A program made the translations under genes and the position numbers. Below, piece by piece: positions 11,495 to 51,985 of a stretch of DNA of 64,000 bases (its first letter is position 1; each line of letters begins with the position of its first letter). The stretch is from an uncultured bacterium (lineage in GTDB: Bacteria > Oederibacteriota > Muellerivitia > Muellerivitales > Muellerivitaceae): contig CAYMOV010000001.1 in NCBI GenBank assembly GCA_964392085.1, forward strand, positions 3,566 through 67,565. The letters run 5' to 3'. Below the pieces are notes generated by a model, which made no database searches, was not told the origin of the DNA, and worked only from the letters and a program-made list of their open reading frames with translations.

Positions 11495-11564
11495 TTTAAA
11501 CGGGATCTAACCGGAGGTACTTGGGCCAGGCCAAGGATTAGCCCGGTTGATGTCCAAATTGCTT

Positions 11565-11590: not shown

Positions 11591-11625
11591 TCGGGTGGAC
11601 GGCCTTTTGGGACGGCCTCCTCGCA

Positions 11626-11653
11626 TTGACACCCCCCCCCCTTCCGCTATAAT
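11626..11653 (+). promoter_or_regulatory. Near-consensus sigma70 promoter (TTGACA, 16-nt spacer containing a C10 homopolymer, TATAAT) for the Crp/Fnr gene.
   Basis: TTGACA 11626-11631, C run 11632-11641, TATAAT 11648-11653. GAGGA RBS before the ATG at 11690. Confidence 0.5.
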
Positions 11654-11689
11654 CCAAACACCAACTTCTACACAAACCATGAGGATTCC

Positions 11690-12346: not shown

Positions 12347-12356
12347 GATCGGATCT

Positions 12357-12388
12357 GACCGCCCCCCGACCGGGGGGCGGTTTTTTTA
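12357..12388 (+). terminator. Rho-independent terminator after the Crp/Fnr gene.
   Basis: CCGCCCCCCG / CGGGGGGCGG stem followed by T7. Confidence 0.8.
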
Positions 12389-12474
12389 TTGGACCCCTTG
12401 CGCTTGTGAACTCCGGAATCCTTCGGTTAGAATGCGCCCGTTTCCAACCAACCTCAAGTGAACTCGACCCGACC

Positions 12475-13449
12475 GTGCAACTGACCCGAATCACCGGACC
12501 CATCCAAGATGACCTCGATCGAGTCGAGCGGACGATCGCGTCCTCACTCCGGACGGATAACCTCTTCATCCGCCAAATGGTTGAATACCTCGCCCATGGA
12601 AGCGGCAAACGCCTGCGGCCCGCTATGGCGATCCTATCCGCCAAAGCCTTTGGTGAAGTCGGCGAACCGGTCATCGCCTTAGCCGCTTCCATTGAGATGC
12701 TCCATGTCGCGACCCTCATCCATGATGACATCATCGATAACTCCCAGGTCCGCCGGAAACAAAAGACCCTCAATTTCAAGTGGGGAAACGAAATCTCGGT
12801 CTTGATGGGGGACTACGTTTTCGCATCCTCGTTTTATTTAATGGCCCAGAACCTTCCCAAGGACGTATTGGAGACCCTCTCCGACACCACGAACATCATT
12901 TGCCGGGGGGAAATCTCTGAAACCTTCCATCGTTTCAACCCGGATTTGACCGAGGACCAGTATTTCGAGGTGGTGCGGGAAAAGACCGCGAGCCTGATCG
13001 CCGCTGCCTGCCAAACCGGAGCCATGTTGGCGGGGGCCGACGGAAAGATCGTGGACGCTTTGTACCGGTTCGGCCTCGGCATCGGGATGGCTTTCCAGGT
13101 GATCGACGACGCGCTTGATTACGAGGGCCAAAAGGACTTGGTCGGGAAGCCCGTTTTGACCGATTTTAAGGAGGGCAAGTTGACCCTTCCGGTGCTCCAC
13201 CTGATGAAGTCCTGCAAAACGGCGGAACAAAAGAAAATCCGCGCCTGGATCCTCAAGAAGGTGAAGTCCGCGGCGGACCTGAAGGGTCTCACGGGACTTT
13301 TGGCGAAATATGGCTCCGTGGAATATTCCAGGAGAAGGGCCGAAGGTTTCGCCACGGAAGCCACCCAAGCCTTAGCGGTGCTCAATGGGAATCCCCTGAA
13401 AAAAGACCTTCTTCAATTCGCCGAATTCTTCGTTCGTCGTGACTACTGA
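12475..13449 (+). CDS. Polyprenyl diphosphate synthase (IspB/HepT-like trans-isoprenyl diphosphate synthase).
   Basis: Two DDxxD motifs (LIHDDIIDNS, QVIDDALDY) and a GKRLRP motif. The track start at 12304 overlaps crp and its terminator. The GTG at 12475 gives a 324-aa product typical of the family, but the start is uncertain and the GTG at 12406 is also possible. Confidence 0.75.
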   Translation: MQLTRITGPIQDDLDRVERTIASSLRTDNLFIRQMVEYLAHGSGKRLRPAMAILSAKAFGEVGEPVIALAASIEMLHVATLIHDDIIDNSQVRRKQKTLNFKWGNEISVLMGDYVFASSFYLMAQNLPKDVLETLSDTTNIICRGEISETFHRFNPDLTEDQYFEVVREKTASLIAAACQTGAMLAGADGKIVDALYRFGLGIGMAFQVIDDALDYEGQKDLVGKPVLTDFKEGKLTLPVLHLMKSCKTAEQKKIRAWILKKVKSAADLKGLTGLLAKYGSVEYSRRRAEGFATEATQALAVLNGNPLKKDLLQFAEFFVRRDY

Positions 13450-13627
13450 CGGCGGTCAGGTTTTTCGCCGTCGCCTGTAACGCGTCTCGGCCTTTCAGGG
13501 AACCATCAAGCCGGGGCGTTTTTTAGCCCCGCGGTCTTGTATCCGTTTAGGCGTTCCACTATATTGTGCCGGCTTTCAAAGACACCCCACTAAAGGTAGT
13601 TCCCGCGTCCTTTTAAGGAGTCGCGTC

Positions 13628-14008
13628 ATGTTGGAACAATACGGTTACGTCCTGGTTTTTCTTCTGGCGGGCTTTGTGTTCATCCTGGGGGCCTTCCTGA
13701 CGGGCTGGGTTTTCAGCCCCAACGGTCTCCTGGGGTTGAAACACAAGTACCGGATGGAGATCCAGGAGGACACCTATGAGTGCGGTGTGGACAGCATCGG
13801 TTCCGCTTGGATCCGGTTCAACGTAAATTTCTACCTCTACGCCCTTCTCTTCGTCCTGTTCGACATTGAGACGGTTTTCCTCTACCCCTGGGCGGTTTCA
13901 TTCCGTGCCTTGGGATGGCCGGGTTTCATTGAAGTCATCGTTTTCGTCTTGGTCCTGATGGGAGGCCTGGCCTACGCCTGGCGGAAAGGTGCCTTGAAAT
14001 GGGAATGA
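13628..14008 (+). CDS. nuoA: NADH-quinone oxidoreductase subunit A.
   Basis: 126 aa, 3 TM helices, conserved NuoA/ND3 sequence. GGAG RBS. Confidence 0.9.
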
Positions 14009-14535
14009 CCGGGATTTCAACTGAGGAGCTCCGGGTCCTGGAGGAGCAATCCAAGGTTCCCGGTTTGTGGACCTTGGAAAAGGCCGTGGAATTCATCTTT
14101 AAGTGGGCCCGTAAAAATTCCCTTTGGCCCCTGCAATTCGGCACCGCTTGCTGCGCCCTGGAGATGATGGCCACCGCCGCCGGACGGTATGACATGGCCC
14201 GTTTTGGGGCGGAGGTTTTTCGGGCTTCCCCCCGCCAGGCTGATTTGTTGATCGCCGCCGGGACCATCACGGAAAAGATGGGTTACGCCCTCAAGCGGCT
14301 CTACGAGCAGATGCCGAAGCCTAGTTGGGTCATCGCCATGGGAAGTTGCACCATCGCGGGCGGGCCTTATTATTACGATTCCTACACGGTCGTGAAGGGG
14401 ATCGATTCCTTCATCCCGGTGGACGTTTACGTCCCTGGCTGCCCTCCCCGGCCCGAGTCGCTGATCCACGGCTTGATGGCCATCCAACGAAAAATCGAGG
14501 ACGAGCCGATTTTCCGCCGCCGTCGGTCCGAATAA
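13999..14535 (+). CDS. nuoB: NADH-quinone oxidoreductase subunit B.
   Basis: [25 protein letters not shown] and VPGCPPRPE Fe-S ligand motifs. Confidence 0.95.
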
Positions 14536-31318: not shown

Positions 31319-31987
31319 ATGGGACGACCCCTCTTACCTACGATTTCCGGGACTCTCCTAGCGGGGTTTTTCCTGTTGTCCGTTCCCGGGTGGGGCGCGG
31401 ATTTCATGGAAATCAACGTATTGCCTACCCCAAAATCGACGATCCCCAACGCCTCTACCGTCTCCAAGACCCCGACCCATCCAGCGACTGAAAAGGCGAC
31501 GGTCGCCCCAACCCAGACCGCGGTTCCCGACCCCACCGCCGATCAGGCGACCGAGGAGCCCACGGTTTCATCAGTTCCCAATCTGACGGTGACGCCCACC
31601 CCGACCGGGACCCCCATCGCGTCGGATTTCGCCACACCTGTTACGTCCCCTTCACCGACCCCTGTCTTGGTCCCCACCCCCGATGTCGTGAAGGGACAGC
31701 TGAAGATGAAGGACCTCTACGCGGCCGGGATGAAGGCTTACCGATCCAAGGATTACGAGAAGTCGATCCGTTTCCTGAAGCAATCCTTGGATTACCACGA
31801 CCCCTACACACCCAAATACTATTACGCCGAATCGAACGCCATGCTTGGCGTGATCTACCAATTCTATTTTATGGTGCCGGGCCATACCGCCTTGGCGCGT
31901 GATTATTACCAGGCCGCGTTGAAGATCGACCCGACCACCCAATCGGCGAAGTTGCATTTGAAGGAAGTCCAAGACGGGAGGGATTGA
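31319..31987 (+). CDS. Secreted protein: signal peptide, about 100-aa Thr/Pro-rich linker, about 95-aa C-terminal TPR-like domain (222 aa).
   Basis: Signal peptide MGRPLLPTISGTLLAGFFLLSVPGWGA. Linker rich in T, P, S, A. The C-terminal block (DPYTPKYYYAESNAMLGVIYQ...YYQAALKIDP) is paralogous to the C-terminus of the next gene. Confidence 0.6.
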   Translation: MGRPLLPTISGTLLAGFFLLSVPGWGADFMEINVLPTPKSTIPNASTVSKTPTHPATEKATVAPTQTAVPDPTADQATEEPTVSSVPNLTVTPTPTGTPIASDFATPVTSPSPTPVLVPTPDVVKGQLKMKDLYAAGMKAYRSKDYEKSIRFLKQSLDYHDPYTPKYYYAESNAMLGVIYQFYFMVPGHTALARDYYQAALKIDPTTQSAKLHLKEVQDGRD

Positions 31988-33108
31988 TGAAGAAATCCAT
32001 GCGAGTGTTGCTGGGATGCCTGCTGGTCTTGGGGGCGGTTTCATTCCCTAAGACGGTCTCCGCCCTCCCCAAAAAGCCCATTGCCTTCACCCTCCAAGGC
32101 ATCTACATATCCCCCATGAAGCCTGAGGCGGTGGCCGATGTCCTCAGCGACGGATGGGCGATCTTCGCCATGCCGGAATTTCAGGCGAACCCCTTTCTGG
32201 GTCTCGGAGTTGGTTATGAATATGACCACTTTTACCGGCCGGGCCGGGGCAGTATGAGGGCGGCCGATATGTTCCTGGCGGGTCGCCTCCATATGCCTGG
32301 CCGCTCGGGCGACAACATCCCCTATTTCCTGGCAACTCTCGGCGTGAACGACCTTCCCAAGACGGGCGACCATTGGCGTGGGACCACCCGAGCCTCCATC
32401 GGGTTGGGCACCCGCCTGGGGGTCGTGCCTGGATTTTCCTTCGACTTGGGCGTCCACCAGCATTGGATGCTCCCCAGGCCCTACAATATGCAATACGTTG
32501 AAGTCAGGTGGGGGATTGCGATGGAATTCGGCGAGCCCGAACCCCAGCCGACTAAGAAACCTACCCAAGCCCCGAGTCCTTCCGCCACTACAACCGTAAC
32601 TGTGGGCAGTCCCACGGCGACAACGACCGTTACCGCGACTCCGACGGCCACCACAACCCAGGGCATGCCGCCCGAGGTGCCAACCGCCACGGTGACCCCC
32701 ACCGCGACCTCGAACGAGTTCTCCAAGAACCCTTTGCCGACCGAGGAGACCTTCAAGACCATGCGGGAGTGCTATGAAGTCGGGATCACCGCCTACCGCC
32801 TAAAAGAATTCGCGAAGGCCGCCAAATACTTCAAGAAGTCCCTGACCATCAACGACCCCAGCACCCCTTACTGGTACTACGCCGAGGCGAACGCCATGAT
32901 GGGGGTCGTATACCAACGCTTCGGACGACTGCCTGACCATCTCCAGAAGGCTGAGTATTACTACCGGGCGGCCCTGAAGATCGACCCTGCCACCGAAACG
33001 GCCAAGAAGGGCCTTGTCTCCCTGGGCATCTCAACGGCGCCGGTCCACCATCGGGCGCCGGTCCATCATCGCGTGGCTCCCAAACCCGCCGCGACGCCGA
33101 GCGAATAG
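31984..33108 (+). CDS. Secreted/outer-membrane protein: signal peptide, about 180-aa OmpA/OmpW-like small beta-barrel-type domain, Thr/Pro-rich linker, C-terminal TPR-like domain (374 aa).
   Basis: Signal peptide MMKKSMRVLLGCLLVLGAVSFPKTVSA. The N-terminal domain shows an alternating hydrophobic-strand pattern. Linker TTTVTVGSPTATTTVTATPTATTT. C-terminal DPSTPYWYYAEANAMMGVVYQ...YYYRAALKIDP block shared with the upstream gene. ATGA overlap with the upstream gene. Confidence 0.6.
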   Translation: MMKKSMRVLLGCLLVLGAVSFPKTVSALPKKPIAFTLQGIYISPMKPEAVADVLSDGWAIFAMPEFQANPFLGLGVGYEYDHFYRPGRGSMRAADMFLAGRLHMPGRSGDNIPYFLATLGVNDLPKTGDHWRGTTRASIGLGTRLGVVPGFSFDLGVHQHWMLPRPYNMQYVEVRWGIAMEFGEPEPQPTKKPTQAPSPSATTTVTVGSPTATTTVTATPTATTTQGMPPEVPTATVTPTATSNEFSKNPLPTEETFKTMRECYEVGITAYRLKEFAKAAKYFKKSLTINDPSTPYWYYAEANAMMGVVYQRFGRLPDHLQKAEYYYRAALKIDPATETAKKGLVSLGISTAPVHHRAPVHHRVAPKPAATPSE

Positions 33109-39982: not shown

Positions 39983-40297
39983 ATGGATCCCAGCAAACTG
40001 CCCTTGATCCTCGAACTCCTCCAGGACGATCCCGATGACCCCGTCCTCTTATTGAATGCCGGTAAGATCCTCCTCCAAACCCAACAGGCCGAGGAGGCCT
40101 TGATCCACCTCCGGAGGCTCGCCGAGAAGCACCCCACGAACATGGCGGTCTACCGCGAATTGGGCGCCGCCTTCCTCGCGAGGGGGGAGACCCGATCGGC
40201 GAGGCAGGCTTTTGAGATGGGACGTCAGGTCTCGCTGGCCGCCCGGGACCCCTCGGCCGCCTCGGAATATGAATCCCTGATCGGCCAATGCGTCTGA
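39983..40297 (+). CDS. Small TPR-like protein (104 aa).
   Basis: Helical repeats (ALIHLRRLAEKHP, AVYRELGAAFLARGE, ARQAFEMGRQ). GGAG RBS. Overlaps the start of the downstream GT-C gene by 10 nt. Confidence 0.45.
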   Translation: MDPSKLPLILELLQDDPDDPVLLLNAGKILLQTQQAEEALIHLRRLAEKHPTNMAVYRELGAAFLARGETRSARQAFEMGRQVSLAARDPSAASEYESLIGQCV

Positions 40298-42399
40298 CCC
40301 CGGGCAGGTCCATGGGCCTCGCGTTCGCAGGTGTCCTTTTGGGCCAAGCGGTCCTTATGGGCTCATCGACCGTTTGGACCCTGTTCCCCGGCATATTTTT
40401 ATTTGCCGTCTCGGCTTATCTCCTTCACGGCCAAAGCACGGCCCCGGTACCGGCCCCACCCCGCTCGGTGGAGTTCATCGCATTCATCCTCCTGCTCATC
40501 GTTTCCCTGGCCGTCCACCTCAGCGCCCTCCAGCAACAACTCCCGCCTGGGCTCTTCCGAGACTTCGGGTTGACCGGCCTTTTAGCCCTGCGGGTCCTCC
40601 GGGAAGGATGGAACCCTTATGGGGTTTTCAATCCGACCTTGGTGGACTATCCCATCCTTTTCAGCCTCTTGGCCGGTTGGTTCAAATTCTTCCGCGCCGA
40701 TGTTTTTAATCTCCTGCTTTTCTTCCTACTTGCCGATTGGATTGGCTTGGCCGCCTTCTTCTACGTCTTCCGTCGCCTGGCGGGCCCCACCCAAGGATTG
40801 GCTGCGATGCTTCTCTTCGCCTTCATGCGGTGGCACCTCATTTTGGGTTCCACGGGGCACCCCCACCCCGTGGCCCTTTCCCTGGTCGGAATTGGTTTGG
40901 CTTTTGTCTTGGCGGCTGAGGGGAAGCGTTGGCCCCTCGCCCTGTTGGGAGGGATATCCCTCGGTATGGCTCCCTGGATCTACCAAGGCGCGAAGGCCGT
41001 TCCGATCGGGCTCGCCTTGTGGTTGGGTTGGGAAACTTACCGGGACAGGGGATTCCTGAAGCGGAACCAAAAGAGGTTCTTGGCGGCCGGGATCGGGTTT
41101 CTCCTGGTGGCCGGGCCCATGACTATCCGGTGGGTCGGGGAAGGGATCGTCGTGAACCGGGAAGGCCAAGTGGCCCTGGATTGGACACATCAGACTGCGG
41201 GCTCGCTGTTGGCCCACGCCGGATCCTATCTTTTGATGTTCAACCGCCTGGGCGACGCCAATCCCATGGAAAGCATACCGGGAAAGCCCCTGATGGACGC
41301 CATCGGGGGAGCCGCCTTCGCCCTGGGGCTGGGCCTATGGCTTTTTGCGCCGAAAAGACGGATCGCCGCCTGCGGCTTAATCGGCCTATCGGTGGGGTGC
41401 CTTCCCGGATTGCTGTCGAAGGACGCGGCCCATGCTGGTCGGACCTTTGAGATGGCCCCCTGGGTCGCCTTGGCGGCATCCGAGGGTTGGATGGCCTTTT
41501 GGCGGTGGGCGCGGGAGCGCAAGGTTCGCCTGCGCCAACTGGCGCAGGGAGGGCTAGTCCTATTATTGCTTGTCAGTGCCTGGATGAATTGGCGCCAATG
41601 GCGATATGAATGGGCGGGTCAGCCAGGCCTATGGGACCTATTTGACGGCGCCGAGACGAAGTTGGGCAACGACGTCGCCCAATGTCCAGTCGGCATGGAG
41701 TTTCGGGTGTCCAACCAATTCCTCCATCACTTCACCTTCAAGTATCTCGCCTATGACCTCCTCAAGGACTGCAAGCCCCTCGATCCATCGGATTTCCTTA
41801 ACCCGCCTGCTCCTGGTGCCCAAAGGGTCCGGTTCGTTTTGGATCCTGCCCAATCGGCCTATCGGGGCGTTTTATTGACGGAATTTCCGAAGGCGCTGGT
41901 CGAAAGCGTCAACAACCCCAAAGGCGAACCGATCGCGTATCAGATCGACGTGCCAAGCGGCGACTTCAAGCCTTTGAAAAAGGACTACTTCGGCCTTCGG
42001 GCCAGGTTCTTCCTCCGGACGCCCCAAGGGGACAGGTTGTTCTTGGACCGGGTGGACCGGGTGGTCAATTACACCAACGGGAACGACTTCCCGAGGCCGC
42101 CGGGGGAAGAAGGCGTTGTGGTGGTCCAATGGACCGGTTGGATCGACGCCCCAAAGACGGGGGACTACAGCCTGGGGGTGGACGCGACCGGGCCCTTCAA
42201 GTTGAAGGTGGACGGCAAAACCCAGGCAACTCCCGAAGGATTGGGGTTGATCCCTCTGCACATAATGAAAGGCAAGTATCTGTTTGAACTGGATTACTTG
42301 CCGAAAAGGGAGTGGACTGAAAAACTTAATCTGACCTTTGGAATTGTTGAACAAACTGGCATTGACGATTTAACGCTGATTGGGTTCGCCACAAAATAG
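40288..42399 (+). CDS. GT-C-fold polytopic membrane glycosyltransferase-like protein with a C-terminal PA14 domain (703 aa).
   Basis: About 12 N-terminal TM helices with an Arg/Asp first loop, resembling ArnT/PMT-type GT-C enzymes. The C-terminal roughly 150 aa carries a PA14-like block (VVVVQWTGWIDAPKTGDYSLGVDATGPFKLKVDG). The last roughly 50 codons are AT-rich. Confidence 0.55.
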   Translation: MRLTPGRSMGLAFAGVLLGQAVLMGSSTVWTLFPGIFLFAVSAYLLHGQSTAPVPAPPRSVEFIAFILLLIVSLAVHLSALQQQLPPGLFRDFGLTGLLALRVLREGWNPYGVFNPTLVDYPILFSLLAGWFKFFRADVFNLLLFFLLADWIGLAAFFYVFRRLAGPTQGLAAMLLFAFMRWHLILGSTGHPHPVALSLVGIGLAFVLAAEGKRWPLALLGGISLGMAPWIYQGAKAVPIGLALWLGWETYRDRGFLKRNQKRFLAAGIGFLLVAGPMTIRWVGEGIVVNREGQVALDWTHQTAGSLLAHAGSYLLMFNRLGDANPMESIPGKPLMDAIGGAAFALGLGLWLFAPKRRIAACGLIGLSVGCLPGLLSKDAAHAGRTFEMAPWVALAASEGWMAFWRWARERKVRLRQLAQGGLVLLLLVSAWMNWRQWRYEWAGQPGLWDLFDGAETKLGNDVAQCPVGMEFRVSNQFLHHFTFKYLAYDLLKDCKPLDPSDFLNPPAPGAQRVRFVLDPAQSAYRGVLLTEFPKALVESVNNPKGEPIAYQIDVPSGDFKPLKKDYFGLRARFFLRTPQGDRLFLDRVDRVVNYTNGNDFPRPPGEEGVVVVQWTGWIDAPKTGDYSLGVDATGPFKLKVDGKTQATPEGLGLIPLHIMKGKYLFELDYLPKREWTEKLNLTFGIVEQTGIDDLTLIGFATK

Positions 42400-42421
42400 G
42401 TTCAAGGAATATATTCAACAA

Positions 42422-42784
42422 ATGAAACCACCAATCATCCTTGATGAAAATGGGAATTTAATGTTTTTTAAATCCTCAGATTCGGTTGAAGCCTACATCG
42501 AATTAATTGACGTAAAGAATAACGAGTATCAAGTCTACGATTCGGAGGGCAAAACATTGGACTTATTTGTTGAGCTCTATAAAAGGAAATGGTTGGGAAT
42601 TACGCTCATGTCGTTTGAAATCGTTAAAATCAGGATGTCGACTTTAAATAACAACAGTCAAGAACAACTAAAACCAAAGATGCTGAAGCTTTTAAAAGAC
42701 GGCAGCCGGGATGCCGAAAAACTTGATGCTCTATCTTTTAAGGAATTGGTTGATCGGTGCTTTGAAAATTACCCAGAAAAGTGA
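42422..42784 (+). CDS. Orphan hypothetical protein (about 120 aa) in a strongly AT-rich island.
   Basis: Open frame with the ATG at 42422 (track ORF from 42380). Composition roughly 35-40% GC by eye against more than 60% for the flanks. No recognisable family. Confidence 0.5.
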   Translation: MKPPIILDENGNLMFFKSSDSVEAYIELIDVKNNEYQVYDSEGKTLDLFVELYKRKWLGITLMSFEIVKIRMSTLNNNSQEQLKPKMLKLLKDGSRDAEKLDALSFKELVDRCFENYPEK

Positions 42785-42851
42785 CAGGTTCGTAAAAACT
42801 ATTTAACGCGAAATAACATCAGGATTTATTCGTGGTCGCCATGGCGAATAC

Positions 42852-44024
42852 TCAACGCACTTCCAAGACCTGATCGATCTTGTGGAGCAGCGACTCCAGT
42901 TGGTCCGGCGGGGGGAGGAACGACAGCTGGGGGACGTCCACCTTGGCGGCGGTCACCTGGTCGCGCTTGAGCTCCTCCTGGAGCGACCTGATGGAGGCGC
43001 GGGACCGGTCCATCTCGGCCTGGAGGTTCTCGACGGCGCGGCGGGCCGATTCCATTTCCTGCTGGTTCCGCTCATAGGAATTCTTCATCGTGGCGGTCTT
43101 GCCGTCGTCCACCCGGCCTTGAAGTTCCTGGACCCGGGCCTTCAGGCTGTTGACTTCAGACTGGGATGCCTCCACCTGCAGTTGGACGTCCTTCTGCTTC
43201 AGCTGGTTCTGCTCGGCGGCCTGGATACGCTCCTCAGCCCTTCGTTTAGCGGTCTCGGCCGCCTTCTGGGCTTCCTCAATCTCCATCTTGGACAGTTCCA
43301 GGTCGTCGCTGAGGCTCATGGCCTTCTTGGCGGCGGCCTCCAGGGCGGATTGGCCCTCGCGGCGGACGCCCTCCACTTCCTGTTCCTTCACGCGGATCTT
43401 TTCGGCGGCGTCCCGGCGGGCGCCCTCGACCTCGGCCTTGGCGGACTCGGCGGCCTTACGGGACTCCTCCAAGTGCTTCTGGGAGGAGTTGAGCTGGTCG
43501 CGGAGGGATTGCAGTTCACGCGAGGAGGATTGGGTCAAGGTCTCGCGTTCCTTTTTCAGATCTTCCCGCAGGGCCTGGAGTTCCTTCTCGGAGGATTGCT
43601 TCAACCCCTCCCGTTCCTTCTGGATCTCTTGGCGGACGGAAGCGAGTTCCTGGCGGGCGGTCTCGAGTGCCTTCTTGGTGTCGGCTGTATCCTGGTCGTG
43701 CTTCTGGAGGGTTTCCTTCAGCTCGAGGGAATGCTTGAGGGAGCCCTCGGAGGACTTGCGCATCTCCAGGAGGTTGCGCTCGGCCACCTCCAGGAGCTTC
43801 TGGGCCTCCTCCCGCGCCTTCTCGGCGCGGTGGTACTCGTCGGCGATGTTCATGGCGGCCAGGATGGCCACCTTGGCCGCGGGGGCCGAGGACTTCTTGC
43901 CGATCTCGTTCATCTTGCCGTCGACGTACTTGGACAGGTCCGTGATGTAGTGGGGGTCGGCGTCGCCCTTGAGGGTGTATTCGTTCCCGTAAATGTTCAC
44001 GGTCACCGACTTCTTGTCGCTCAT
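42852..44024 (-). CDS. zapA: ZapA-domain cell-division protein with a long C-terminal coiled-coil (390 aa).
   Basis: N-terminal VTVNIYGNEYTLKGDADPHYITDLSKYVDGKMNEI...AILAAMNIADE matches the ZapA fold signature. About 290 aa of heptad-rich E/K/Q/R/A coiled coil follow. Confidence 0.7.
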   Translation of the reverse strand: MSDKKSVTVNIYGNEYTLKGDADPHYITDLSKYVDGKMNEIGKKSSAPAAKVAILAAMNIADEYHRAEKAREEAQKLLEVAERNLLEMRKSSEGSLKHSLELKETLQKHDQDTADTKKALETARQELASVRQEIQKEREGLKQSSEKELQALREDLKKERETLTQSSSRELQSLRDQLNSSQKHLEESRKAAESAKAEVEGARRDAAEKIRVKEQEVEGVRREGQSALEAAAKKAMSLSDDLELSKMEIEEAQKAAETAKRRAEERIQAAEQNQLKQKDVQLQVEASQSEVNSLKARVQELQGRVDDGKTATMKNSYERNQQEMESARRAVENLQAEMDRSRASIRSLQEELKRDQVTAAKVDVPQLSFLPPPDQLESLLHKIDQVLEVR

Positions 44025-44046
44025 CGGGGCCTCTCCAGGGGATAGG

Positions 44047-44295
44047 TCACTTCGGGGTGGATTCCAGGTCGTCGACCAGCGGCTTCATCTTCTTCAGGTT
44101 GTCCCGAAGCTGCCGCAGGTCCTCCAGGGCTTCCATGTACTTCAGGCGCCAAACGTCGTCGTCGGGGGAATCCTGGGGGAGCGAAGGCTTTTGCCCGGTT
44201 TGGAGCTTCAACTTCTGGTTTTCCCGCATCAACTGCCCGTTGGAGGACCGGAGCTTCACCACGATGTCCAACAGGCGTTGGATGCGGTCTTCCAG
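44047..44295 (-). CDS. Small coiled-coil protein, ZapB-like (start uncertain; the track ORF extends to 44382 and overlaps pheT).
   Basis: LEDRIQRLLDIVVKLRSSNGQLMRENQKLKLQ...ALEDLRQLRDNLKKM heptads. Sits between pheT and zapA. No ATG after the pheT stop; TTG/GTG candidates only. Confidence 0.35.
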   Translation of the reverse strand: MEDRIQRLLDIVVKLRSSNGQLMRENQKLKLQTGQKPSLPQDSPDDDVWRLKYMEALEDLRQLRDNLKKMKPLVDDLESTPK

Positions 44296-44329
44296 GCCTT
44301 CCCAGGCGGCCTGGGGGGAGTTCGACGGG

Positions 44330-46738
44330 TTATCGGAGGGCAACGGCGTACCTCTTCTGGAGGGTATCCACGATCCGCTCAACCTGCTCAGCCACTTCAG
44401 CGTCGGTCAATGTCCGATCGGGCGACTGGAACGATAGGCGGTAGGCCAAGCTGCGGCGCCCCTCCGGCAGGTTCTTCCCGCGATACAGGTCGAAGAGGAC
44501 CGTTTCCACCAGGCTCGGGCCCCCGGTCTCCCGGATCAGCGACTCGATCTCGGCGTTGGAGCGCTCATCCGGCACCACCAGCGCCAGGTCCCGACGCGCC
44601 TCCGGGAACTTGGGAAGCGGCGTCACCGTGACGCCCTTCCGGGCGGCGGCCCAACAGGCCTCGAGGTTGACCTCGACCGCGAAGCATTCCTGGGCGATAT
44701 CATAGGCTTTCTTGACCTTGGGGTCGAGTTCGCCGCCCCAAGCCAAAAGGGTGTTCCCGGGGCCCAGGACCCGGAAAGAAACGCCCGTACGGTAAGGGAA
44801 TCCTTCCTGGCCGTATTCCCAGGCCAGGGCGGCACCGGGGGCAAGTTCCGCCAAGGCGTCGGCCGCCAGGCCCTTCAAATCGAAAAAGTCCACGTTGCGG
44901 GATGGGTTCTCCCAACCCGTCCCAGCCGCCGCGCCCGCCAGGACGGCCCCGACCTGGAGCCGTTCCGTCAAGGTTCCCCCCGGCTGGGGAAGGAAGGCTT
45001 TGTTGACCTCGAAAAAGGCGGCGCCGTCCTGCTGGAAAGATAGGTTGAGTTTGACGTTCGCCAAAAGCGAGGGAACCAGGGTCGGCCGCATCACCGCTTG
45101 GTCCTCGGCGATGGGGTTGACCAAGACGTGGGCGGACCGGAATGGATGGCCAGGGGGAAGCTTCAGGCGATCGGCGAAATCCGGCGGGAGGAACGAGGTG
45201 TTGACGGCTTCCGTCAGGCCGTGGCGCTGGAACGCGCGCCGGGCGGATCGCAGGGGCCGTTGGACCTCAGGGAGCTTCGAAGGGGACACCCGGATCGGGG
45301 GTGCGGTCAGGGGAAGGCGGTCGTACCCGTTCATCCGGGCCACTTCCTCGATCAGGTCGATTTCGGCGTTGAGGTCCACGCGCCAGGTCGGCAGGGTCAC
45401 CTGGGCCGTATCGCCCTCGGGCAGGATCCGGCAGCCCAAGGCCGCCAGGAAGCCGTATTGCGCCTCGGCGGAAAGCTGGATCCCCAAAACCTTGTTGCAA
45501 CGGGCCGGCCGGAACACCACCGTCTTGGGTTCCAAGGGGCCTGACTCGGATAGCACGATTCCCTTGAGGATTTCCCCTCCCGCCACCTGTTGAATCAGGG
45601 CGGCGGCCCTGTCCAAGGCTCGAAGCACTCCGGCGTGATCGATGCCACGCTCGAAACGGTAGGAGGAATCCGTCGAGATCCCCAGGCGACGGGCGGTGCG
45701 GCGGACCAAGCCCGGTTGGAACAGGGCGGCTTCCAGGAGGATGTTCTTGGTCCCGGCCGAAACCATGGATTGGGAACCGCCCATGACGCCCGCGAGGGCC
45801 ACCGGTTTCCTCGAGTCGGCGATCACCAGGACGTCGGGGTTTAATTCCTTCTCGGTGCCGTCCAACAGGGGGATCCTTTCCCCGGACTTGGCCCGTCGGA
45901 CAACGATCTGGTGGCCCTCCAGGAGGTCGAAATCGAAGGTGTGGAGCGGCTGACCCAGTTCGAAGAGGATGAAATTCGTGACGTCCACCACGTTGTTGAT
46001 GGATTTTTGGCCGAGCCTCTCCAACTTTTCCTTCAGCCACCGGGGGGAAGGCCCGACTTGGATCCCCTCCAGGAGACGGCAGCTATAGAACGGGCAACCC
46101 GTCGGGTCCTCGACCCTCAGGCCGACTTTTAAGGAAGCCTCGGCACCGTTCTCAACCAGTTTCGGTTCGGCGGGGAACTTCGGTTCCAATTTCAGGAGGG
46201 CGCCCAGTTCACGGGCCAAACCGTAATGGCTGAGCAGGTCGGCCCGGTTGGGCGTCAGTTCCACCTCGAACAGGGTGTCGGGCAGGCCGAGATAGTCCTT
46301 CAGGTCGGCGCCAACGGGAGCGTCCTCGGGGAGCAGGTAGATGCCATCGGCGTCGGCCGCGAGACCCAATTCCTTGGCGGAACACATCATGCCGAAGGAT
46401 TCCACCCCGCGGATCTTGGCCATCTCGAGTCTGTCCAAGCCCGGAAGGGAAGCTCCCACGAGGGCCAGGGGAACCTTCTGCCCCGGCGCGATGTTTTTCG
46501 CGCCGCAGACCACTTGGAGGGTTTCGGAACCGGTGGAAACTTTCGTCAAGGAAAGGCGGTCGGCTTGGGGGTGTTTCGCCACTTCCATCAGTTGGGCCAC
46601 GATGACCTTCGAGAGGCCGGCTCCGGCTTCCTGGACGTTTCCCACTTCAATGCCGGCCGCCACGAGTTTCGGCAGGACTTCCTTGAAGGGCCCCTTCAGG
46701 GGAAGGTAATCGAGTATCCAGCGGGACGAGGCTTGCAT
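44330..46738 (-). CDS. pheT: Phenylalanine--tRNA ligase beta subunit.
   Basis: 802 aa with a tRNA-binding N-terminal domain, B3/4 and B5 domains, and a C-terminal anticodon-binding domain aligned to PheT. Confidence 0.92.
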   Translation of the reverse strand: MQASSRWILDYLPLKGPFKEVLPKLVAAGIEVGNVQEAGAGLSKVIVAQLMEVAKHPQADRLSLTKVSTGSETLQVVCGAKNIAPGQKVPLALVGASLPGLDRLEMAKIRGVESFGMMCSAKELGLAADADGIYLLPEDAPVGADLKDYLGLPDTLFEVELTPNRADLLSHYGLARELGALLKLEPKFPAEPKLVENGAEASLKVGLRVEDPTGCPFYSCRLLEGIQVGPSPRWLKEKLERLGQKSINNVVDVTNFILFELGQPLHTFDFDLLEGHQIVVRRAKSGERIPLLDGTEKELNPDVLVIADSRKPVALAGVMGGSQSMVSAGTKNILLEAALFQPGLVRRTARRLGISTDSSYRFERGIDHAGVLRALDRAAALIQQVAGGEILKGIVLSESGPLEPKTVVFRPARCNKVLGIQLSAEAQYGFLAALGCRILPEGDTAQVTLPTWRVDLNAEIDLIEEVARMNGYDRLPLTAPPIRVSPSKLPEVQRPLRSARRAFQRHGLTEAVNTSFLPPDFADRLKLPPGHPFRSAHVLVNPIAEDQAVMRPTLVPSLLANVKLNLSFQQDGAAFFEVNKAFLPQPGGTLTERLQVGAVLAGAAAGTGWENPSRNVDFFDLKGLAADALAELAPGAALAWEYGQEGFPYRTGVSFRVLGPGNTLLAWGGELDPKVKKAYDIAQECFAVEVNLEACWAAARKGVTVTPLPKFPEARRDLALVVPDERSNAEIESLIRETGGPSLVETVLFDLYRGKNLPEGRRSLAYRLSFQSPDRTLTDAEVAEQVERIVDTLQKRYAVALR

Positions 46739-47074
46739 GGGAACCTTGGGGGGCTTCGGCGGGTCTTTTCAGGTGAAAACGCCTAAAAAGTCCGAAACAC
46801 CATGAATTTTCGTGAGTTTAAGGGAGCCCTACGGGGCTGTCAACGTTTCCGGCGTTGGAACAACCTTGGAAACGCCCTTTTTAAGGTGATTTTTGGGGAA
46901 GGCCGTCGTATAAATGCGCCTCTTGGTTTGCTGAAACCCAGCCAATCATTGGTTTTGTCTGGATGTCCGGTGAAAAGCCCTTGACCAGTGGGCTTTCATC
47001 CTAATGAACCCCTATTCCGATCTGCCCGGGATCACCGGCTGGGTCGGTTTTCCATCCTTCGACGAAAGGTGGTG

Positions 47075-48176
47075 ATGGTTTTGGCGTTGTTTGAGTTGGA
47101 CGTCAAGGCCTTGGACCGCAAATTCACCGAAGTGAGGGATTACCTTTGACCCCGCTCACTACGGACGGGAAATAGAGGAACTCGAGGCGAACACCACCCA
47201 AACCGGTTTCTGGGATAGGCCCCAGGAAGCCCGGGAAGTGACCTCCCGGTTGGCCCGGCTGAAGGATGATTACGCCCTCTACCAGAAATTCGAGAAGGAC
47301 TACCAGGACCTACTGGCCTTTCATGAAGTCCTCAAGGACGGCCATGACGCCGCCCTGCTCGCCGAGTGCGAGGAGAACTTCCACCGATTCGAGGCGGAAT
47401 TCCACGAGTTCGAGCTGAAGCGAAACTTCACGGGGAAGTACGACTTCAATAACGCCTACCTGTCGCTCCACCCGGGCGCCGGCGGGACCGAGAGCCAGGA
47501 CTGGGCCGAGATGCTTCTTCGCATGTACCAGCGCTGGTGTGAGAACCACGGGTTCGAGGTCGAGACCCTCGATTACCAAGTGGCCGACGAGGCCGGGATC
47601 AAATCCGCCTCCCTCCTGGTCAAGGGACCCTACGCCTACGGGTACCTCAAGGTGGAGAAAGGGGTTCACCGTCTGGTTCGCATCTCCCCCTATGACGCAG
47701 CCAAACGACGCCATACCTCGTTTTCCTCGGTGGACGTCATGCCGGAAGTCGAGGACGTCGAGGTCGAGATCCGGGCGGACGACGTCAAGCTCGATACCTA
47801 CCGCTCCGGTGGGAAAGGCGGCCAGAACGTCAACAAGGTCGAGACGGCCGTCCGCCTGACCCACATGCCCACCGGCATCATCGTGGCCTGCCAGATCGAA
47901 CGGTCCCAGCAGAAGAACCGGGACCAAGCCATGAAGATGCTGAAGGCCAAGCTTTACCTCCATTTCCAGGCCCTGCACGACGCCGAATTGGCCCAAGTGG
48001 CCGGGAGCAAGAAGAAGATTGAGTGGGGAAGCCAAATACGGTCCTACGTCTTCCAGCCCTACCAAATGGTGAAGGACCACCGGACCGAAAAGGAAGTGGG
48101 GGACGTCCACCAGGTGATGAACGGGGAGATCGACCCCTTCATCGAGGCGGCCCTCAAGGCAAAATTGGTGGATTGA
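47075..48176 (+). CDS. prfB: Peptide chain release factor 2 with programmed +1 frameshift (join 47075..47146, 47148..48176).
   Basis: Frame 0 from the ATG at 47075 encodes [24 protein letters not shown] and stops at CTT TGA C (47144-47150), the canonical RF2 shift site, preceded by an AGGGAT SD-like element. The +1 frame continues as [13 protein letters not shown]... through SPF and GGQ motifs to 48176. The ORF track shows only 47238..48176. Confidence 0.88.
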
Positions 48177-48242
48177 GGGTTGTGCCGGCTCCGCCAAGTG
48201 GGGACTAATTTTGATAAAATCCACGGGTTTGTGAAACAAAGG

Positions 48243-50447
48243 ATGGACCGAGAAATGGAAGAAAAAGCCCTCAAACCCATCAGGGTTGTATTGGGATACG
48301 TCCAATATATTCTTCTGGCCGCCGGGGCCTGGTACGGCCTCCACGGCCAATGGTCCACGATGATCATCACCTTGGGCCTCAGCGCCCTGTGCCATCAGGT
48401 CCTGACCGCGCCCCCCGGACACCCTGACCGGCCAACGGAGCCCCTTCCGGCCTCCAGCCCGGTCCAGTGGGGATGGATCGCCGTGGCGCTCGTCGCCGTT
48501 TACTACGCGGCACCCCTCCTGCAGCAACCCGATTACAACTGGTTGATGGGGCTCCCCCTGTGGCTCTTGTCCGGCTGGGCCCTGTATCGAGCCTTTCCGG
48601 AGGGCCTTCCGGTCATGGATTCCCAGGACATCCCGGTCCGGCCCGTCCGGGGCCAGATGTCCGGGATCATCCTCGGTGTCCTCGTCCTCCTGACCTTCGC
48701 GGCCGTCAAAGTGGTTTTTTTCTTCAAGGGCACGAATGTCCCATTTCCCCTGGAGGCGGTGAAACCCGGGGTCTCGCTCATCTTTGGAACCGCGCTCGCG
48801 ATAATGCTTTTGAGGTGGAAACGCCCGGAGGGCAAGCCGGCCCAGGCCCTTCCCCGTGAAGCCCTTTGGGTCGCCCTTCTGATCTTGGTCGCGGCGCTCC
48901 TTCGCTACCCTTTCATCCACCACCTCTTCGCGGGATTCCAGGGCGACGAAGCCAACGACGCCTTTGACGGCGTCAATGCCATGACGATGTCGAACGGCGT
49001 GGATTCCCCCTTTAAGACATCCTGGGGCGGTTCCCCCTCCATGCCGTATTTTTTCGCCGCGGAGTTCCTCAAGGTCTTCGGGATCAACCTCATCGGTTAC
49101 CGCCTGTACACCCTGACGGCTTGTTTCATCTCGGTTTGGGTTTTCTTCAAGTGGGTCCGGTTCTATTTCAGCGCCAGGGCCTCCCTGGTGGCCTCCTTCC
49201 TGCTGGCCATCTCCTGGTGGCACCTATACAACTCCTTCGCGGTCTTCAACAACAACATCACCTTCCTGATGGAAGTGACGTCGTTCTATTTCCTGGAAAA
49301 GGCCCTCCGAAGCGGGCGCAAGGTCGATTTCTGGTGGACCGGGGTCTTTTTCGCGACCTCCGTTCAAACCTACATCTCCGGCCGTTTGGTCTCGGTCATG
49401 GGGTTCACGGCGGTCCTGGCCTGCGTCCTCATCGCCGGGCGCTGGACCTTCGTGAAGACCTATTGGAAGAACCTCCTTCTGGCCGCCCTGTCTTACCTGG
49501 TCTTCATTTCGCCCTTCCTCTGGTACATCCTCCATTTCCCCCGGGAATTCCTTGGTCGGGCCAAGTACCTGAACATTTTCACCGAAGTCCAACGTACCGG
49601 TGATCATTGGTTGCCCTTCAAGACCGGGGCCTTCACATTGCTGTCCCCGTTTTGGACGACTCCCAGCCCCGACCGGCGGTTCATGATCCCGGGGGATTCC
49701 ATGGTGGACGGCTTTTCGGCCTTCCTCTTCCTGACGGGTTTGGTCCTGGCGTTTTTCACCCTTCGCCGTCGGGTCAGTTGGCTGGGTTTTTGCGGGTTAT
49801 TCTTCGGCATGTTGACCAACGCCCTCGCGATCCAGGGTATGAATCCGGATACCGCCTACATCAACGCCATGCGCCTGTTCCTGGCGCTGCCCTTCATCCT
49901 TTTCCTCGCGGCTCGGGGAGCCGAATGGTACTTAGGGATGTTGGATTCCTACGGAAAAGCCGGCAAACTTTTGGTCCGCGTCTTCCTCATCGTGGGTTTT
50001 TCCATAGCGGGATATTACAACATCCACCTTTATTACTTTAGGCTCGAGGATCGGCCCTCGGATTGGTGCGCCGTGGGATACCACGAAGTGGAGTTGGGGA
50101 AGATCTACCAGAGGGACCTTCCTACCGCACATTTGATGATCGATTGCGACGCTTATAACGGTGTCGTCGATTTCTTCACGGGGCTTCGTCAGAAAAATTT
50201 CGACGTCATCACCGGAAACAAGGTGGACTTCCCGATCCTGTACCCGGTGACCCGCGACGTGGAGATCTTCATGCAGCCGAACAAGCTCAAGAACGTCCAG
50301 GACGACTGCCTCAAATGGTACCCCAAGGCGGTCTGGACGGATTACAAGAATCCCTGGGGGGAATTGTACGCCCGCAGTGTCCGGATCAGTCGAGAGGACA
50401 TCCAGGCCCTTCAAAACGGAAAGACAGTCGGGGATCCCCTCCCCTGA
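48243..50447 (+). CDS. GT-C-fold membrane glycosyltransferase (ArnT/PMT GT39/GT83-like), about 735 aa.
   Basis: Multiple TM helices. First-loop GDEANDAFDG acidic motif typical of PMT/ArnT-type GT-C enzymes. Large C-terminal soluble domain. Start ambiguous (TTG 48180, ATG 48243 or ATG 48255). Confidence 0.6.
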   Translation: MDREMEEKALKPIRVVLGYVQYILLAAGAWYGLHGQWSTMIITLGLSALCHQVLTAPPGHPDRPTEPLPASSPVQWGWIAVALVAVYYAAPLLQQPDYNWLMGLPLWLLSGWALYRAFPEGLPVMDSQDIPVRPVRGQMSGIILGVLVLLTFAAVKVVFFFKGTNVPFPLEAVKPGVSLIFGTALAIMLLRWKRPEGKPAQALPREALWVALLILVAALLRYPFIHHLFAGFQGDEANDAFDGVNAMTMSNGVDSPFKTSWGGSPSMPYFFAAEFLKVFGINLIGYRLYTLTACFISVWVFFKWVRFYFSARASLVASFLLAISWWHLYNSFAVFNNNITFLMEVTSFYFLEKALRSGRKVDFWWTGVFFATSVQTYISGRLVSVMGFTAVLACVLIAGRWTFVKTYWKNLLLAALSYLVFISPFLWYILHFPREFLGRAKYLNIFTEVQRTGDHWLPFKTGAFTLLSPFWTTPSPDRRFMIPGDSMVDGFSAFLFLTGLVLAFFTLRRRVSWLGFCGLFFGMLTNALAIQGMNPDTAYINAMRLFLALPFILFLAARGAEWYLGMLDSYGKAGKLLVRVFLIVGFSIAGYYNIHLYYFRLEDRPSDWCAVGYHEVELGKIYQRDLPTAHLMIDCDAYNGVVDFFTGLRQKNFDVITGNKVDFPILYPVTRDVEIFMQPNKLKNVQDDCLKWYPKAVWTDYKNPWGELYARSVRISREDIQALQNGKTVGDPLP

Positions 50448-50479
50448 CCCAATCGGACGCTGGGGCGTCCCGGAGAAAC

Positions 50480-51985
50480 ATGAACGAACCTAACGATTTC
50501 CTGCAAGTCCGCCTGGAGAAGCTCAAGGCGATCCGTGAGAAGGGGATCAACCCCTATCCCTCCCGATTCGACGTGACCCACCGTTCCGCCGACCTCCTGC
50601 AGGCCCATTCGGGCCTGGAGGCCGGGCAGTCCCGCGAGCCCGAGAAGGTCTCCGTGGCGGGGCGGGTCATGACCCTCCGCGCCCACGGCAAGAGCACCTT
50701 CGCGCACCTCCAGGATTCCCTCGGGAAGATCCAGGTCTACCTCAAGCTGGACGCGGTCGGGGCCGAAGCCTACGCGACCTTCGGCTTGGTGGAGATGGGC
50801 GACTGGATCGGGGTGACCGGTTATCCCTTCAAGACCCGGACCGGCGAGGTCACGATCCACGTGGAGACCTATACGATCCTCTCCAAGGCGCTCCATCCCC
50901 TGCCGGAGAAATGGCACGGCTTGACGGACGTCGAGGCCCGATACCGGCACCGCTACGTGGACCTGATCGTGAACCCGGATGTCCGCAGGACCTTTGAGAC
51001 CCGGTCCAAGGTGGTCTCGGCCATCCGCCGTTTGATGGACAGCCTGTCGTTCCTGGAAGTCGAAACCCCCATGATGCACCCGATCCCGGGCGGGGCGGCC
51101 GCCAAACCCTTCACGACGCACCACAACGCCTTGGACATGGACCTTTTCCTTCGGGTGGCACCCGAGCTTTACCTGAAACGCCTGCTCGTGGGCGGTCTCG
51201 AACGGGTTTACGAGATCAACCGCAACTTCCGGAACGAGGGCGTCAGCACCAAACACAACCCGGAGTTCACCATGTTGGAGGCCTACCAGGCCTTCGGAGA
51301 TTGCGGCACGGTGATGGATTTGACCGAGAAAATCATAGCGGCCGCCGCCGAGGGCGCCGGCAAGGACCTGCGCATGACCATCGGCGGGTTGGAGGTTGAT
51401 TTCACGCCGCCCTTCAAACGGATCCCGCTCCTCCAGGCCCTGAAGGAGATCGGCGGCGTCGACTACGACGCCATCTCGATCGAGGAACTCCGGAACCGCG
51501 TGAAGGAATCGCCCGCCAACGTGAAACACCTCGAGTCCCTGGCCAAGGCCGAATTGGCCTACCTGCTGTTCGGCGAACTGGTGGAATCCAAGCTGACGGA
51601 CCCGGTCTTCATCACGGACTTCCCGGTGGAGGTTTCGCCGCTCTCCAAATCCAAACCCTCCAACCCCGCGCTGACCGAAAGGTTCGAACTGTTCGTCCTG
51701 GGGCGGGAGATCGCCAATGGTTTCTCGGAGTTGAACGATCCGGTCGACCAGCGCCGCCGTTTCGAGAAGCAGGTCGAATTGCGCAAGGCCGGTGACGAGG
51801 AGGGCATGTTCCTCGACGAGGACTATATCCTGGCCTTGTCCTACGGCATGCCGCCCGCGGGCGGCGTGGGCATCGGCATCGACCGCCTGCTGATGCTCTT
51901 GACGGACAGCCCCTCGATCCGTGACGTCATCCTGTTCCCGCTGATGCGTCCCCGCGCCGACGAGGAACGGATGGTTTTCGAATGA
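50480..51985 (+). CDS. lysS: Lysine--tRNA ligase (class II).
   Basis: N-terminal OB-fold. Class II motifs (EVETPMMHPIPGGAAAKPF, NFRNEG, GGVGIGIDRLLMLL). Confidence 0.93.
   Translation: MNEPNDFLQVRLEKLKAIREKGINPYPSRFDVTHRSADLLQAHSGLEAGQSREPEKVSVAGRVMTLRAHGKSTFAHLQDSLGKIQVYLKLDAVGAEAYATFGLVEMGDWIGVTGYPFKTRTGEVTIHVETYTILSKALHPLPEKWHGLTDVEARYRHRYVDLIVNPDVRRTFETRSKVVSAIRRLMDSLSFLEVETPMMHPIPGGAAAKPFTTHHNALDMDLFLRVAPELYLKRLLVGGLERVYEINRNFRNEGVSTKHNPEFTMLEAYQAFGDCGTVMDLTEKIIAAAAEGAGKDLRMTIGGLEVDFTPPFKRIPLLQALKEIGGVDYDAISIEELRNRVKESPANVKHLESLAKAELAYLLFGELVESKLTDPVFITDFPVEVSPLSKSKPSNPALTERFELFVLGREIANGFSELNDPVDQRRRFEKQVELRKAGDEEGMFLDEDYILALSYGMPPAGGVGIGIDRLLMLLTDSPSIRDVILFPLMRPRADEERMVFE

Follow-up and report, generated by a model that had tools for sequence, protein, structure and literature searches.

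Glycosyltransferases of the GT-C (glycosyltransferase C) fold decorate lipid A, O-antigens, arabinan, teichoic acids and glycoproteins, and determine antigenicity, phage susceptibility and drug resistance. In the enzymes of this fold that have been solved, an acidic residue in the first loop (loop 1) is catalytic or binds metal, and conserved Arg, Lys and Tyr residues bind the lipid phosphate. A three-component form of periplasmic glycosylation, embracing GtrA/GtrB/GtrC-type O-antigen seroconversion and its relatives, was reportedly set out by Mann and Whitfield in 2016. For proteins that join a GT-C module to a PA14 domain, we know of no characterised member. Here, we describe two genes of such a family, gene 1 (GTC1) and gene 2 (GTC2), in a 64-kb chromosomal segment of an uncultured diderm bacterium (contig CAYMOV010000001.1; about 60% GC). 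The whole of this stretch, which holds mostly housekeeping genes, is referred to as the window. Our preferred reading, to which we give a probability of roughly 0.55, is that both genes encode periplasm-facing glycosyltransferases of the GT-C_A fold, belonging to one widespread uncharacterised family and using a polyprenyl-phosphate-sugar to modify a glycan or glycolipid of the envelope.

Both proteins adopt the GT-C fold, as the original prediction proposed. Searches of PDB sequences with either whole protein returned no GT-C relative and no protein O-mannosyltransferase (PMT); only PA14 domains matched, and a comparison of folds was therefore needed. The AlphaFold2 (AF2) model of gene 1, built on a 42-sequence alignment of its family, has a mean predicted local distance difference test score (pLDDT) of 90.0 and a predicted template-modelling score (pTM) of 0.88, with transmembrane (TM) helices at residues 5-442 and a beta-sandwich at 566-703; the gene 2 model reaches a pLDDT of 76.7. 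Foldseek searches of the PDB gave ArnT as the best match for gene 1 (5f15, E 1e-7) and for gene 2 (5ezm, 4e-7). For gene 1, ArnT was followed by the yeast, human and archaeal catalytic subunits of oligosaccharyltransferase (OST; STT3/AglB), PglB, ALG12, AftD, EmbB and Pmt4. Foldseek probability was 1.00 for both proteins, with template-modelling scores, normalised to the target, of 0.49-0.61. Against Pfam PMT_2 (PF13231; gathering score 26.1), gene 2 passes comfortably (E 3.6e-10, 40.7 bits) and gene 1 falls just short (E 2.1e-4, 22.0 bits).

The predicted topology places the presumed active site outside the cytoplasm. By helix parity in gene 1, the loop that follows helix 3 (the first helix of the core), a long loop at residues 286-337 and the whole C-terminal region are assigned to the periplasm. 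The short loops carry 10 Lys and Arg residues on the predicted cytoplasmic side versus 2 on the periplasmic side, in keeping with the positive-inside rule. Both lines of evidence agree with the earlier expectation of an acidic residue in the first periplasmic loop. That residue is Asp92 (codon 40561-40563), the putative catalytic residue; of the 42 family sequences, 40 have Asp at this position and 2 have Glu. The same alignment shows no variation at E62, D337 or N434, and R162, R181-W182, Y232, E249 and R385 are further invariant or near-invariant polar residues. By analogy with solved GT-C enzymes, we infer that Asp92 is catalytic or metal-binding, and that the conserved Arg and Tyr residues bind lipid phosphate.

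Gene 2 does contain the GDEANDAFDG motif that first drew attention to it, and the Asp231-Glu232 pair within it (48945-48950) is invariant in all six homologues. Its loop 1 thus has an Asp-Glu dipeptide (GDEAND), compared with a single Asp in gene 1 and its family (F-R-D-F-G). Residues 182-718 of gene 2 can be aligned to the family profile of gene 1 (hhalign, 99.8%, E 5e-29), an alignment that spans the membrane core and the middle periplasmic domain and not PA14, and that sets the G-D-E of gene 2 against the column of the family's conserved Asp92. A hidden Markov model (HMM) of the middle domain matches gene 1 at E 9.6e-36 and gene 2 more weakly, at 8.4e-5, marking a family-specific domain common to both. 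On the strength of these profiles, genes 1 and 2 are distant paralogues.

The C-terminal domain of gene 1 folds as PA14, as had been predicted. Its match to Pfam PA14 (PF07691; E 6.1e-7, 29.8 bits) exceeds the gathering score of 24, Foldseek pairs this part of the AF2 model with the PA14 domains of RsgI3, Epa1, MpAFP and Cea1, and the family profile recovers the RsgI3 PA14 domain from the PDB at 5e-32 and anthrax protective antigen at about 3e-14. Neither of the outcomes named beforehand as telling against the original prediction appeared: no assignment to a non-glycosyltransferase family was obtained, and the PA14 fold was confirmed. The further suggestion, that this domain confers glycan recognition, fared worse. 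Calcium-dependent, lectin-type PA14 domains (Epa, Flo, MpAFP and RsgI PA14-A) are defined by a DcisD (Asp-Asp) motif on strand 5 plus an Asn or Gln of CBL2 (PMC6852018). This calcium/sugar motif is missing in gene 1, which reads VDA..TG at the site, with T-G at the motif columns. Nor is it conserved in the family, where the consensus is T/S-D-x, only the first Asp being kept and the second position being variable. The RsgI3 PA14-B domain, likewise without DcisD, shows by itself no binding of calcium or pectin (PMC6852018). Sugar recognition by the gene 1 domain is plausible by its likeness to the periplasmic domains of Emb and AftD; the motif test lends it no support.

A PA14 domain on a GT-C enzyme had been thought unusual, and this view has to be abandoned. 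An exhaustive HMMER scan found 1167 clusters at 50% identity that match the family at E<=1e-3, 68 of them at E<=1e-30. The apparent rarity of the family in word-indexed searches, which gave 5 matches each, was overturned by that scan. Among the 42 aligned members, 41 match PMT_2 (E<=1e-3) and 34 match PA14. In a census of 181 homologues, biased towards the architecture of the query, 85 consist of TM module, middle domain and PA14, and another 46 have a second PA14 domain, so that 131 of 181 carry the fusion. To judge from these counts, a GT-C module followed by the middle domain and one or two PA14 domains is the norm in this family. Its members occur in FCPU426, Chloroflexota, Spirochaetia and proteobacterial metagenome-assembled genomes (MAGs), and the closest representative genomes with relatives of gene 1 are MAGs labelled 'uncultured bacterium' or candidate division FCPU426. 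Searches of the available literature for PA14 together with GT-C, PMT_2 or ArnT turned up no work on this architecture beyond an incidental 'PMT2/PA14 hypothetical protein' entry in a gene table.

Neither of the enzyme classes proposed at the outset is supported. Assignment to the PMT type (GT39) fails, since the matches are only to the broad PMT_2 model, neither protein matches PF02366 PMT, MIR or PMT_4TMC at E<=0.01, and gene 1 has a single loop-1 Asp. The alternative, ArnT, is the nearest fold only. The family profile aligns with Escherichia coli ArnT at an hhalign probability of 3.9%, too weak for mapping catalytic residues. Searches with ArnT (phmmer) found nothing in the window or related loci, NCBIfam ArnT models had no match at E<=0.01, and no gene of the 4-amino-4-deoxy-L-arabinose (Ara4N) pathway (arnA/B/C/D/E/F) was found across the whole 64-kb window. 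By these searches, neither protein qualifies as GT39/PMT proper or as ArnT/GT83, and the fitting label for both is GT-C_A fold, PMT_2 clan, unassigned family.

The one unexpected result, new here, is what appears to be module-level allelic exchange at gene 1. It emerges from comparison with related loci on other, metagenomic, contigs (L004, L005, L013, L039, L041 and others), found with a five-sequence alignment. Against L039, glgP is nearly identical over 825 codons (synonymous divergence, dS, 0.004), and the small open reading frame (ORF) of tetratricopeptide repeats (TPR) just upstream of gene 1 shows no synonymous and one non-synonymous difference (99% amino acid identity). Within gene 1, divergent tracts with sharp edges (about 14% at 40738-41488 and about 12% at 41900-42264) are set among near-identical parts: the first 450 nt differ at 3 sites and 41488-41788 at 1. 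The ratio of non-synonymous to synonymous change (omega, or dN/dS) in the divergent tracts is 0.15-0.22. Identity to L039 by blastn stops at 42264, which is the start of a low-GC island. This island holds the last 45 or so codons of gene 1 plus a 107-aa ORF (42461-42784, +) that has no match in Pfam, PHROGs or the PDB. At the same site L039 has other AT-rich DNA, its own PA14 terminus (45% amino acid identity) and a different small membrane ORF; the island is absent in L004. The pattern at the island resembles cassette-type replacement of a 3′ end.

An exchange of the whole membrane module is indicated in L004 (window 39983-42399 versus L004 1120-3550). The flanks are 90-93% identical in nucleotides, the TPR ORF 84%, and the C-terminal 235 codons of gene 1 81%. 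The membrane module (aa 8-468) has no nucleotide similarity and an amino acid identity of 32.6%, which is no closer to gene 1 than family members of unrelated lineages. The ratio of TM to C-terminal distance is 5.55 for L004, compared with 0.34-0.97 for 19 other family members, and the clade of the three gene-1 alleles has 85% bootstrap support for the C-terminal part versus 29% for the membrane module. Further, dS is 0.68 for the TPR ORF and 0.56 for the C-terminal part of gene 1, against 0.32 for glgP and 0.33 for zapA. These values are about twice those of the flanks, so the whole block from the TPR ORF to gene 1 has a different history from its surroundings. In L005 and L013, the order gene 1-zapA-pheT is kept and the positional orthologues of gene 1 are 32-36% identical, compared with 64-67% for pheT, 77% for lysS and 88% for prfB. 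Taken together, these comparisons indicate that gene 1 is a strain-level recombination hotspot, at which tracts, a whole membrane module and a low-GC 3′ cassette have been exchanged.

We speculate, and hold it only as a tentative and rather doubtful extension, that gene 1 is a modular, cassette-exchanged 'serotype' locus for surface glycans in a bacterium of an uncultured candidate phylum. Swaps of the module, setting donor and linkage specificity, and of the 3′ cassette would be separate events, with the TPR partner and acceptor-binding domains retained. This would be a previously undescribed, domain-level diversification of a GT-C enzyme, presumably driven by phages or predators. If so, the final strands of PA14 and a small accessory ORF would both come from the 3′ cassette.

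The 104-aa TPR ORF is, by the sequence evidence, a real gene. It scores above the gathering thresholds of TPR_19 (35.6 bits against 25), TPR_17 (32.4 against 24.4) and TPR_14 (29.6 against 23.5), is preceded by a GGAG resembling a ribosome-binding site, and has a dN/dS of 0.09 against its L004 orthologue, indicating purifying selection. The tight coupling to gene 1 that the original prediction described is upheld by the overlapping frames and by conservation in the closest relatives. Specifically, the TPR frame runs 10 nt into gene 1 if the latter begins with the ATG at 40288 (a start at 40312 instead would give a 14-nt gap), and translational coupling of the two genes is accordingly predicted. 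The TPR protein has no signal peptide and is presumably cytoplasmic. Its gene stands directly upstream of gene 1 only in the window, L041 (the same allele), L039 (97% nucleotide identity) and L004 (84%), and is absent from all other related loci; L005 has an unrelated 64-aa ORF at that spot. Derivation of the small protein as a split-off domain of longer family members was considered and rejected, since no family member has a matching TPR.

Gene 2 was correctly recognised as a second GT-C gene ending at 50447, but its start is more likely 48255 than the 48243 first given, with AAGGA 12 nt upstream and a 730-aa product identical to a database protein (P0006). In the relative L005, prfB and lysS are adjacent (8257-10864), with only a 75-aa ORF between them and no gene 2. 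Gene 2 is therefore a lineage-specific insertion into a conserved housekeeping pair (window 48177-50480). The copies of gene 2 recovered all share at least 90% identity. Most of its nearest relatives beyond these (22-24% identity) have a PA14 domain, which suggests that gene 2 lost this domain secondarily.

The gene neighbourhoods of relatives offer a clue to function. Across the 30 related loci in which neighbours were clustered, the commonest real neighbour is a family 2 glycosyltransferase (GT2; Pfam Glycos_transf_2, ArnC-like up to E 1.9e-38), found within 8 kb in 8 loci. A flippase-like gene of the MprF type (LPG_synthase_TM, PF03706) occurs in 4 of the 30, a GT9 heptosyltransferase of lipopolysaccharide (LPS) core type in 4 loci, and a YfhO-like GT-C gene in 5. 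All three components, a GT-C, a GT2 and a flippase-like gene, are present in L022, L023 and L035; the window has no GT2 or flippase. In L022 and L023 the three genes are contiguous on one strand. Seven loci (L014, L020, L021, L025, L028 at 2-14528, L030 and L037) hold arrays of three to five paralogous GT-C(+PA14) genes. The MAGs with such arrays are proteobacterial, FCPU426 and Chloroflexota, and GT2, GT9 heptosyltransferase and YfhO-like genes are often present in them too. A three-component periplasmic scheme has been described for the glycosylation of envelope glycans (PMC11127046). The neighbourhoods of the relatives match its logic and, by this analogy, favour a glycan or glycolipid acceptor over a protein.

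Sequence and models together establish the fold, the topology (with loop 1 and its near-invariant Asp, and the C-terminal domains, predicted in the periplasm), the paralogy and the domain architecture. On our preferred reading, which draws on general knowledge of GT-C enzymes and on the neighbourhoods of relatives, a cytoplasmic GT2 would make the polyprenyl-phosphate-sugar donor, which would then be flipped across the membrane. Each enzyme would move a single sugar from it to an envelope acceptor, the loop-1 Asp serving in catalysis or metal binding and the periplasmic middle and PA14 domains holding or positioning the acceptor. This acceptor would more probably be a glycan or glycolipid, of LPS, O-antigen or exopolysaccharide type, than a protein. 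Both genes are orphans in housekeeping operons of the window, and the donor synthase and flippase must consequently be encoded elsewhere. Recombination would vary gene 1, the TPR partner and most of the periplasmic domains being kept, and such variability would be expected if the enzyme determined a variable epitope on surface glycans.

Several observations weigh against this reading. No GT2 (ArnC/GtrB-like), GtrA or flippase gene lies within the 64-kb window. The glyco-gene neighbours described above belong to distant family members (22-30% identity), not to orthologues, and this distance makes the carry-over of neighbourhood to the window genes weak. Each variant gene-1 allele rests on a single metagenomic contig. 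A lectin role for the PA14 domain is unproven, given the missing DcisD motif and the PA14-B precedent, and we infer donor, acceptor and activity by analogy for the whole family. Finally, gene 1 as it stands in the window differs from the family at the near-invariant positions R77H, R334P and D338A, residues that the swapped allele (P0019) retains, as well as at Y126S and several PA14 positions. These changes, the subthreshold PMT_2 score of gene 1 and its orphan setting, with donor-pathway genes not nearby, would also fit a decaying or non-catalytic paralogue, such as a scaffold or sensor, whose variability reflects relaxed constraint and not diversifying exchange. We regard decay as the least probable of the alternatives: three alleles all have an intact ORF, the divergent tracts and C-terminal part give an omega of 0.15-0.24, and the AF2 confidence for gene 1 is very high. 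Further, D92, E62, R162, R181, Y232, E249, D337, R385 and N434 are all kept in the window allele, and patchy divergence with sharp boundaries fits recombination, not uniform decay.

The other alternatives concern the acceptor. Actinobacterial Pmt enzymes O-mannosylate Thr/Pro-rich linkers, and the window does encode secreted proteins of this composition at 31319..33108, as the original prediction pointed out; they exist as two ORFs, with a Thr+Pro density of 20-24 per 40 aa and matches to TPR_2. Both GT-C proteins might then be PMT-like O-glycosyltransferases acting on such linkers as secreted proteins emerge in the periplasm, a notion helped by the PMT_2 match and Asp-Glu loop motif of gene 2 and by Pmt4 and Pmt1/2 among the Foldseek matches. 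We nevertheless think it unlikely, since the matches to Pmt structures (E 5e-4 to 8e-3) are much weaker than those to ArnT and OST (1e-7), and the PF02366, MIR and PMT_4TMC models that would identify such enzymes have no match. The Thr/Pro genes lie 7 kb from gene 1, behind ymdB, rarA and glgP, with unrelated genes on both strands between; no operonic or syntenic link joins them to it, and none of the 38 related loci searched has a homologue. Relatives adjoin genes of LPS and polysaccharide type (GT9, YfhO-like, GT2 plus flippase), not genes for secreted proteins, and C-terminal domains resembling carbohydrate modules are the pattern of the glycan-building Emb and AftD enzymes. Another acceptor is offered by ArnT-type enzymes, which add a charged sugar (Ara4N, galactosamine (GalN) or galacturonic acid (GalA)) to lipid A or the LPS core and confer resistance to cationic peptides. 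ArnT is the best structural match for both proteins, the host is a diderm (LptD, LolCE and TamB are encoded in the window), and four relatives have GT9 heptosyltransferase neighbours. This identity seems improbable all the same: the profile, phmmer and NCBIfam results place both proteins outside ArnT, no arnA/B/C/D/E/F-like genes adjoin them, ArnT carries no PA14 domain, and extreme allelic variability is atypical of enzymes that modify lipid A.

Assigning a donor and acceptor to the GT-C + PA14 family would annotate more than 1000 protein clusters. That modules recombine at a housekeeping locus which is clonal in other respects suggests strain-specific envelope glycosylation in uncultured soil and peat bacteria, and the gene 1 alleles represent natural chimeras with which to map the module that sets specificity. 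The findings overturn nothing in current understanding, and the architecture is common though unstudied.

Table 1. Coordinates of the features discussed, numbered from the first letter of the window.
Feature	Position	Strand	Basis or remark
Two Thr/Pro-rich secreted proteins	31319-31987 and 31984-33108	+	Signal-peptide-like N-termini, C-terminal TPR domains
Small TPR protein, 104 aa, about 2.5 repeats	39983-40297	+	Pfam TPR models
Gene 1 (GTC1), 703 aa	40288-42399	+	
Gene 1 membrane module, aa 1-442	40288..41613	+	13 TM helices: 2 extra N-terminal plus GT-C core
Gene 1 middle periplasmic alpha/beta domain, aa 446-561	41623..41970	+	AF2, domain HMM, hhalign
Gene 1 PA14 domain, aa 566-703, plus stop codon	41983..42399	+	Pfam, profile, Foldseek
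Low-GC island	about 42250-42850	not applicable	34-45% GC versus about 60% in the genome
Gene 2 (GTC2), 730 aa	48255..50447	+	GT-C without PA14, between prfB and lysS
Gene 2, six extra N-terminal helices, aa 1-185			Low confidence
Gene 2 GT-C core, aa about 198-599			
Gene 2 C-terminal alpha/beta domain, aa about 600-720			

The first part of the window encodes outer-membrane proteins, an LptD-like protein, uvrA, a polyprenyl synthase, complex I subunits and haem biosynthesis. Next, in order, are the two Thr/Pro-rich secreted TPR proteins, ymdB, rarA, glgP, the small TPR ORF and gene 1; beyond gene 1, a zapA-like gene and pheT occupy the opposite strand, ahead of prfB, gene 2, lysS, lolCE/D, mcsB, clpC and tamB. 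No polysaccharide or glycosylation gene cluster was found in the 64-kb window, Rfam and tRNA scans of it gave no matches, and a promoter and terminator scan was at chance level. The two Thr/Pro proteins are paralogues in their C-terminal TPR domain and have a 4-nt overlap between their frames; in the second, an additional N-terminal domain of about 180 aa looks like a small outer-membrane beta-barrel. In an ORF of about 846 aa at 1529-4069 (+), an N-terminus resembling a signal peptide is accompanied by over 500 aa of tandem proline-rich repeats (LPPLPGS..., GDLAMPPSMDLPSAPGEALPP...); the ORF has no Pfam match, and the local GC is 66% with a strongly negative AT skew. The ZapA homologue (42852-44024, -) is unusually long at 390 aa, with an N-terminal ZapA domain and weak matches to SMC/Rad50-type coiled-coil models over the remaining 300 aa or so; the corresponding region of L005 has two separate ORFs. 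The prfB gene has the canonical RF2 programmed +1 frameshift heptamer CTTTGAC at 47144-47150 (+), just upstream of the ORF at 47238-48176, whose TIGR00020 match begins at model position 47, which fits a frameshifted N-terminus.

Among known systems, ArnT (GT83; 5ezm/5f15) is the closest in structure. Its 13 TM helices precede a periplasmic domain at the C-terminus, its first periplasmic loop bears an Asp, and its donor is a polyprenyl-phosphate-sugar, as the donor of the window enzymes would be. Both window proteins differ from it in their extra N-terminal helices; they stand outside its sequence family and have no arn operon, and ArnT is without the PA14 domain of gene 1. PMT, bacterial Pmt (GT39) and TMTC enzymes share the Pfam clan (PMT_2) and, with gene 2, the Asp-Glu motif of loop 1. 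They differ in the domains missing here (PF02366, MIR and PMT_4TMC), and no substrate link to the window proteins was found. The association of gene 1 with TPRs recalls TMTC, in which, however, the repeats are lumenal and fused to the enzyme, whereas here they form a separate protein that is presumably cytoplasmic. The PA14 domains of the polysaccharide sensors RsgI3/RsgI4 and of anthrax protective antigen are the closest sequence relatives of the gene 1 C-terminal domain and share its beta-sandwich, although RsgI PA14-A binds pectin or xylan through calcium coordinated by the DcisD motif that gene 1 lacks.

The mycobacterial EmbA/B/C and AftD enzymes, both represented among the Foldseek matches, provide a precedent for a lectin-like domain fused to a GT-C enzyme. 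In them, too, a GT-C module is followed by periplasmic beta-sandwich domains, of the carbohydrate-binding module (CBM) type, which hold the glycan acceptor. Their appended folds are CBM-type and not PA14, they are much larger, they serve the actinobacterial arabinan pathway, and their relation to the window proteins is one of fold and not of sequence. GtrA/GtrB/GtrC-type systems (Kelly et al. 2024, PMC11127046) differ in their setting, since they lie in prophages or O-antigen clusters and the window genes lie in housekeeping operons without a GT2 or flippase. Classical GtrC has neither a PA14 nor a middle domain, and the flippase-like neighbour of the relatives is of the MprF type (PF03706), not GtrA. 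The resemblance lies in a GT-C enzyme that acts, or here would act, on the periplasmic face, and in the GT2 synthase and flippase-like protein adjacent to it in L022, L023 and L035. Further, the GT-C component of these systems is variable and determines specificity, and strain-level allelic diversity is a feature of both.

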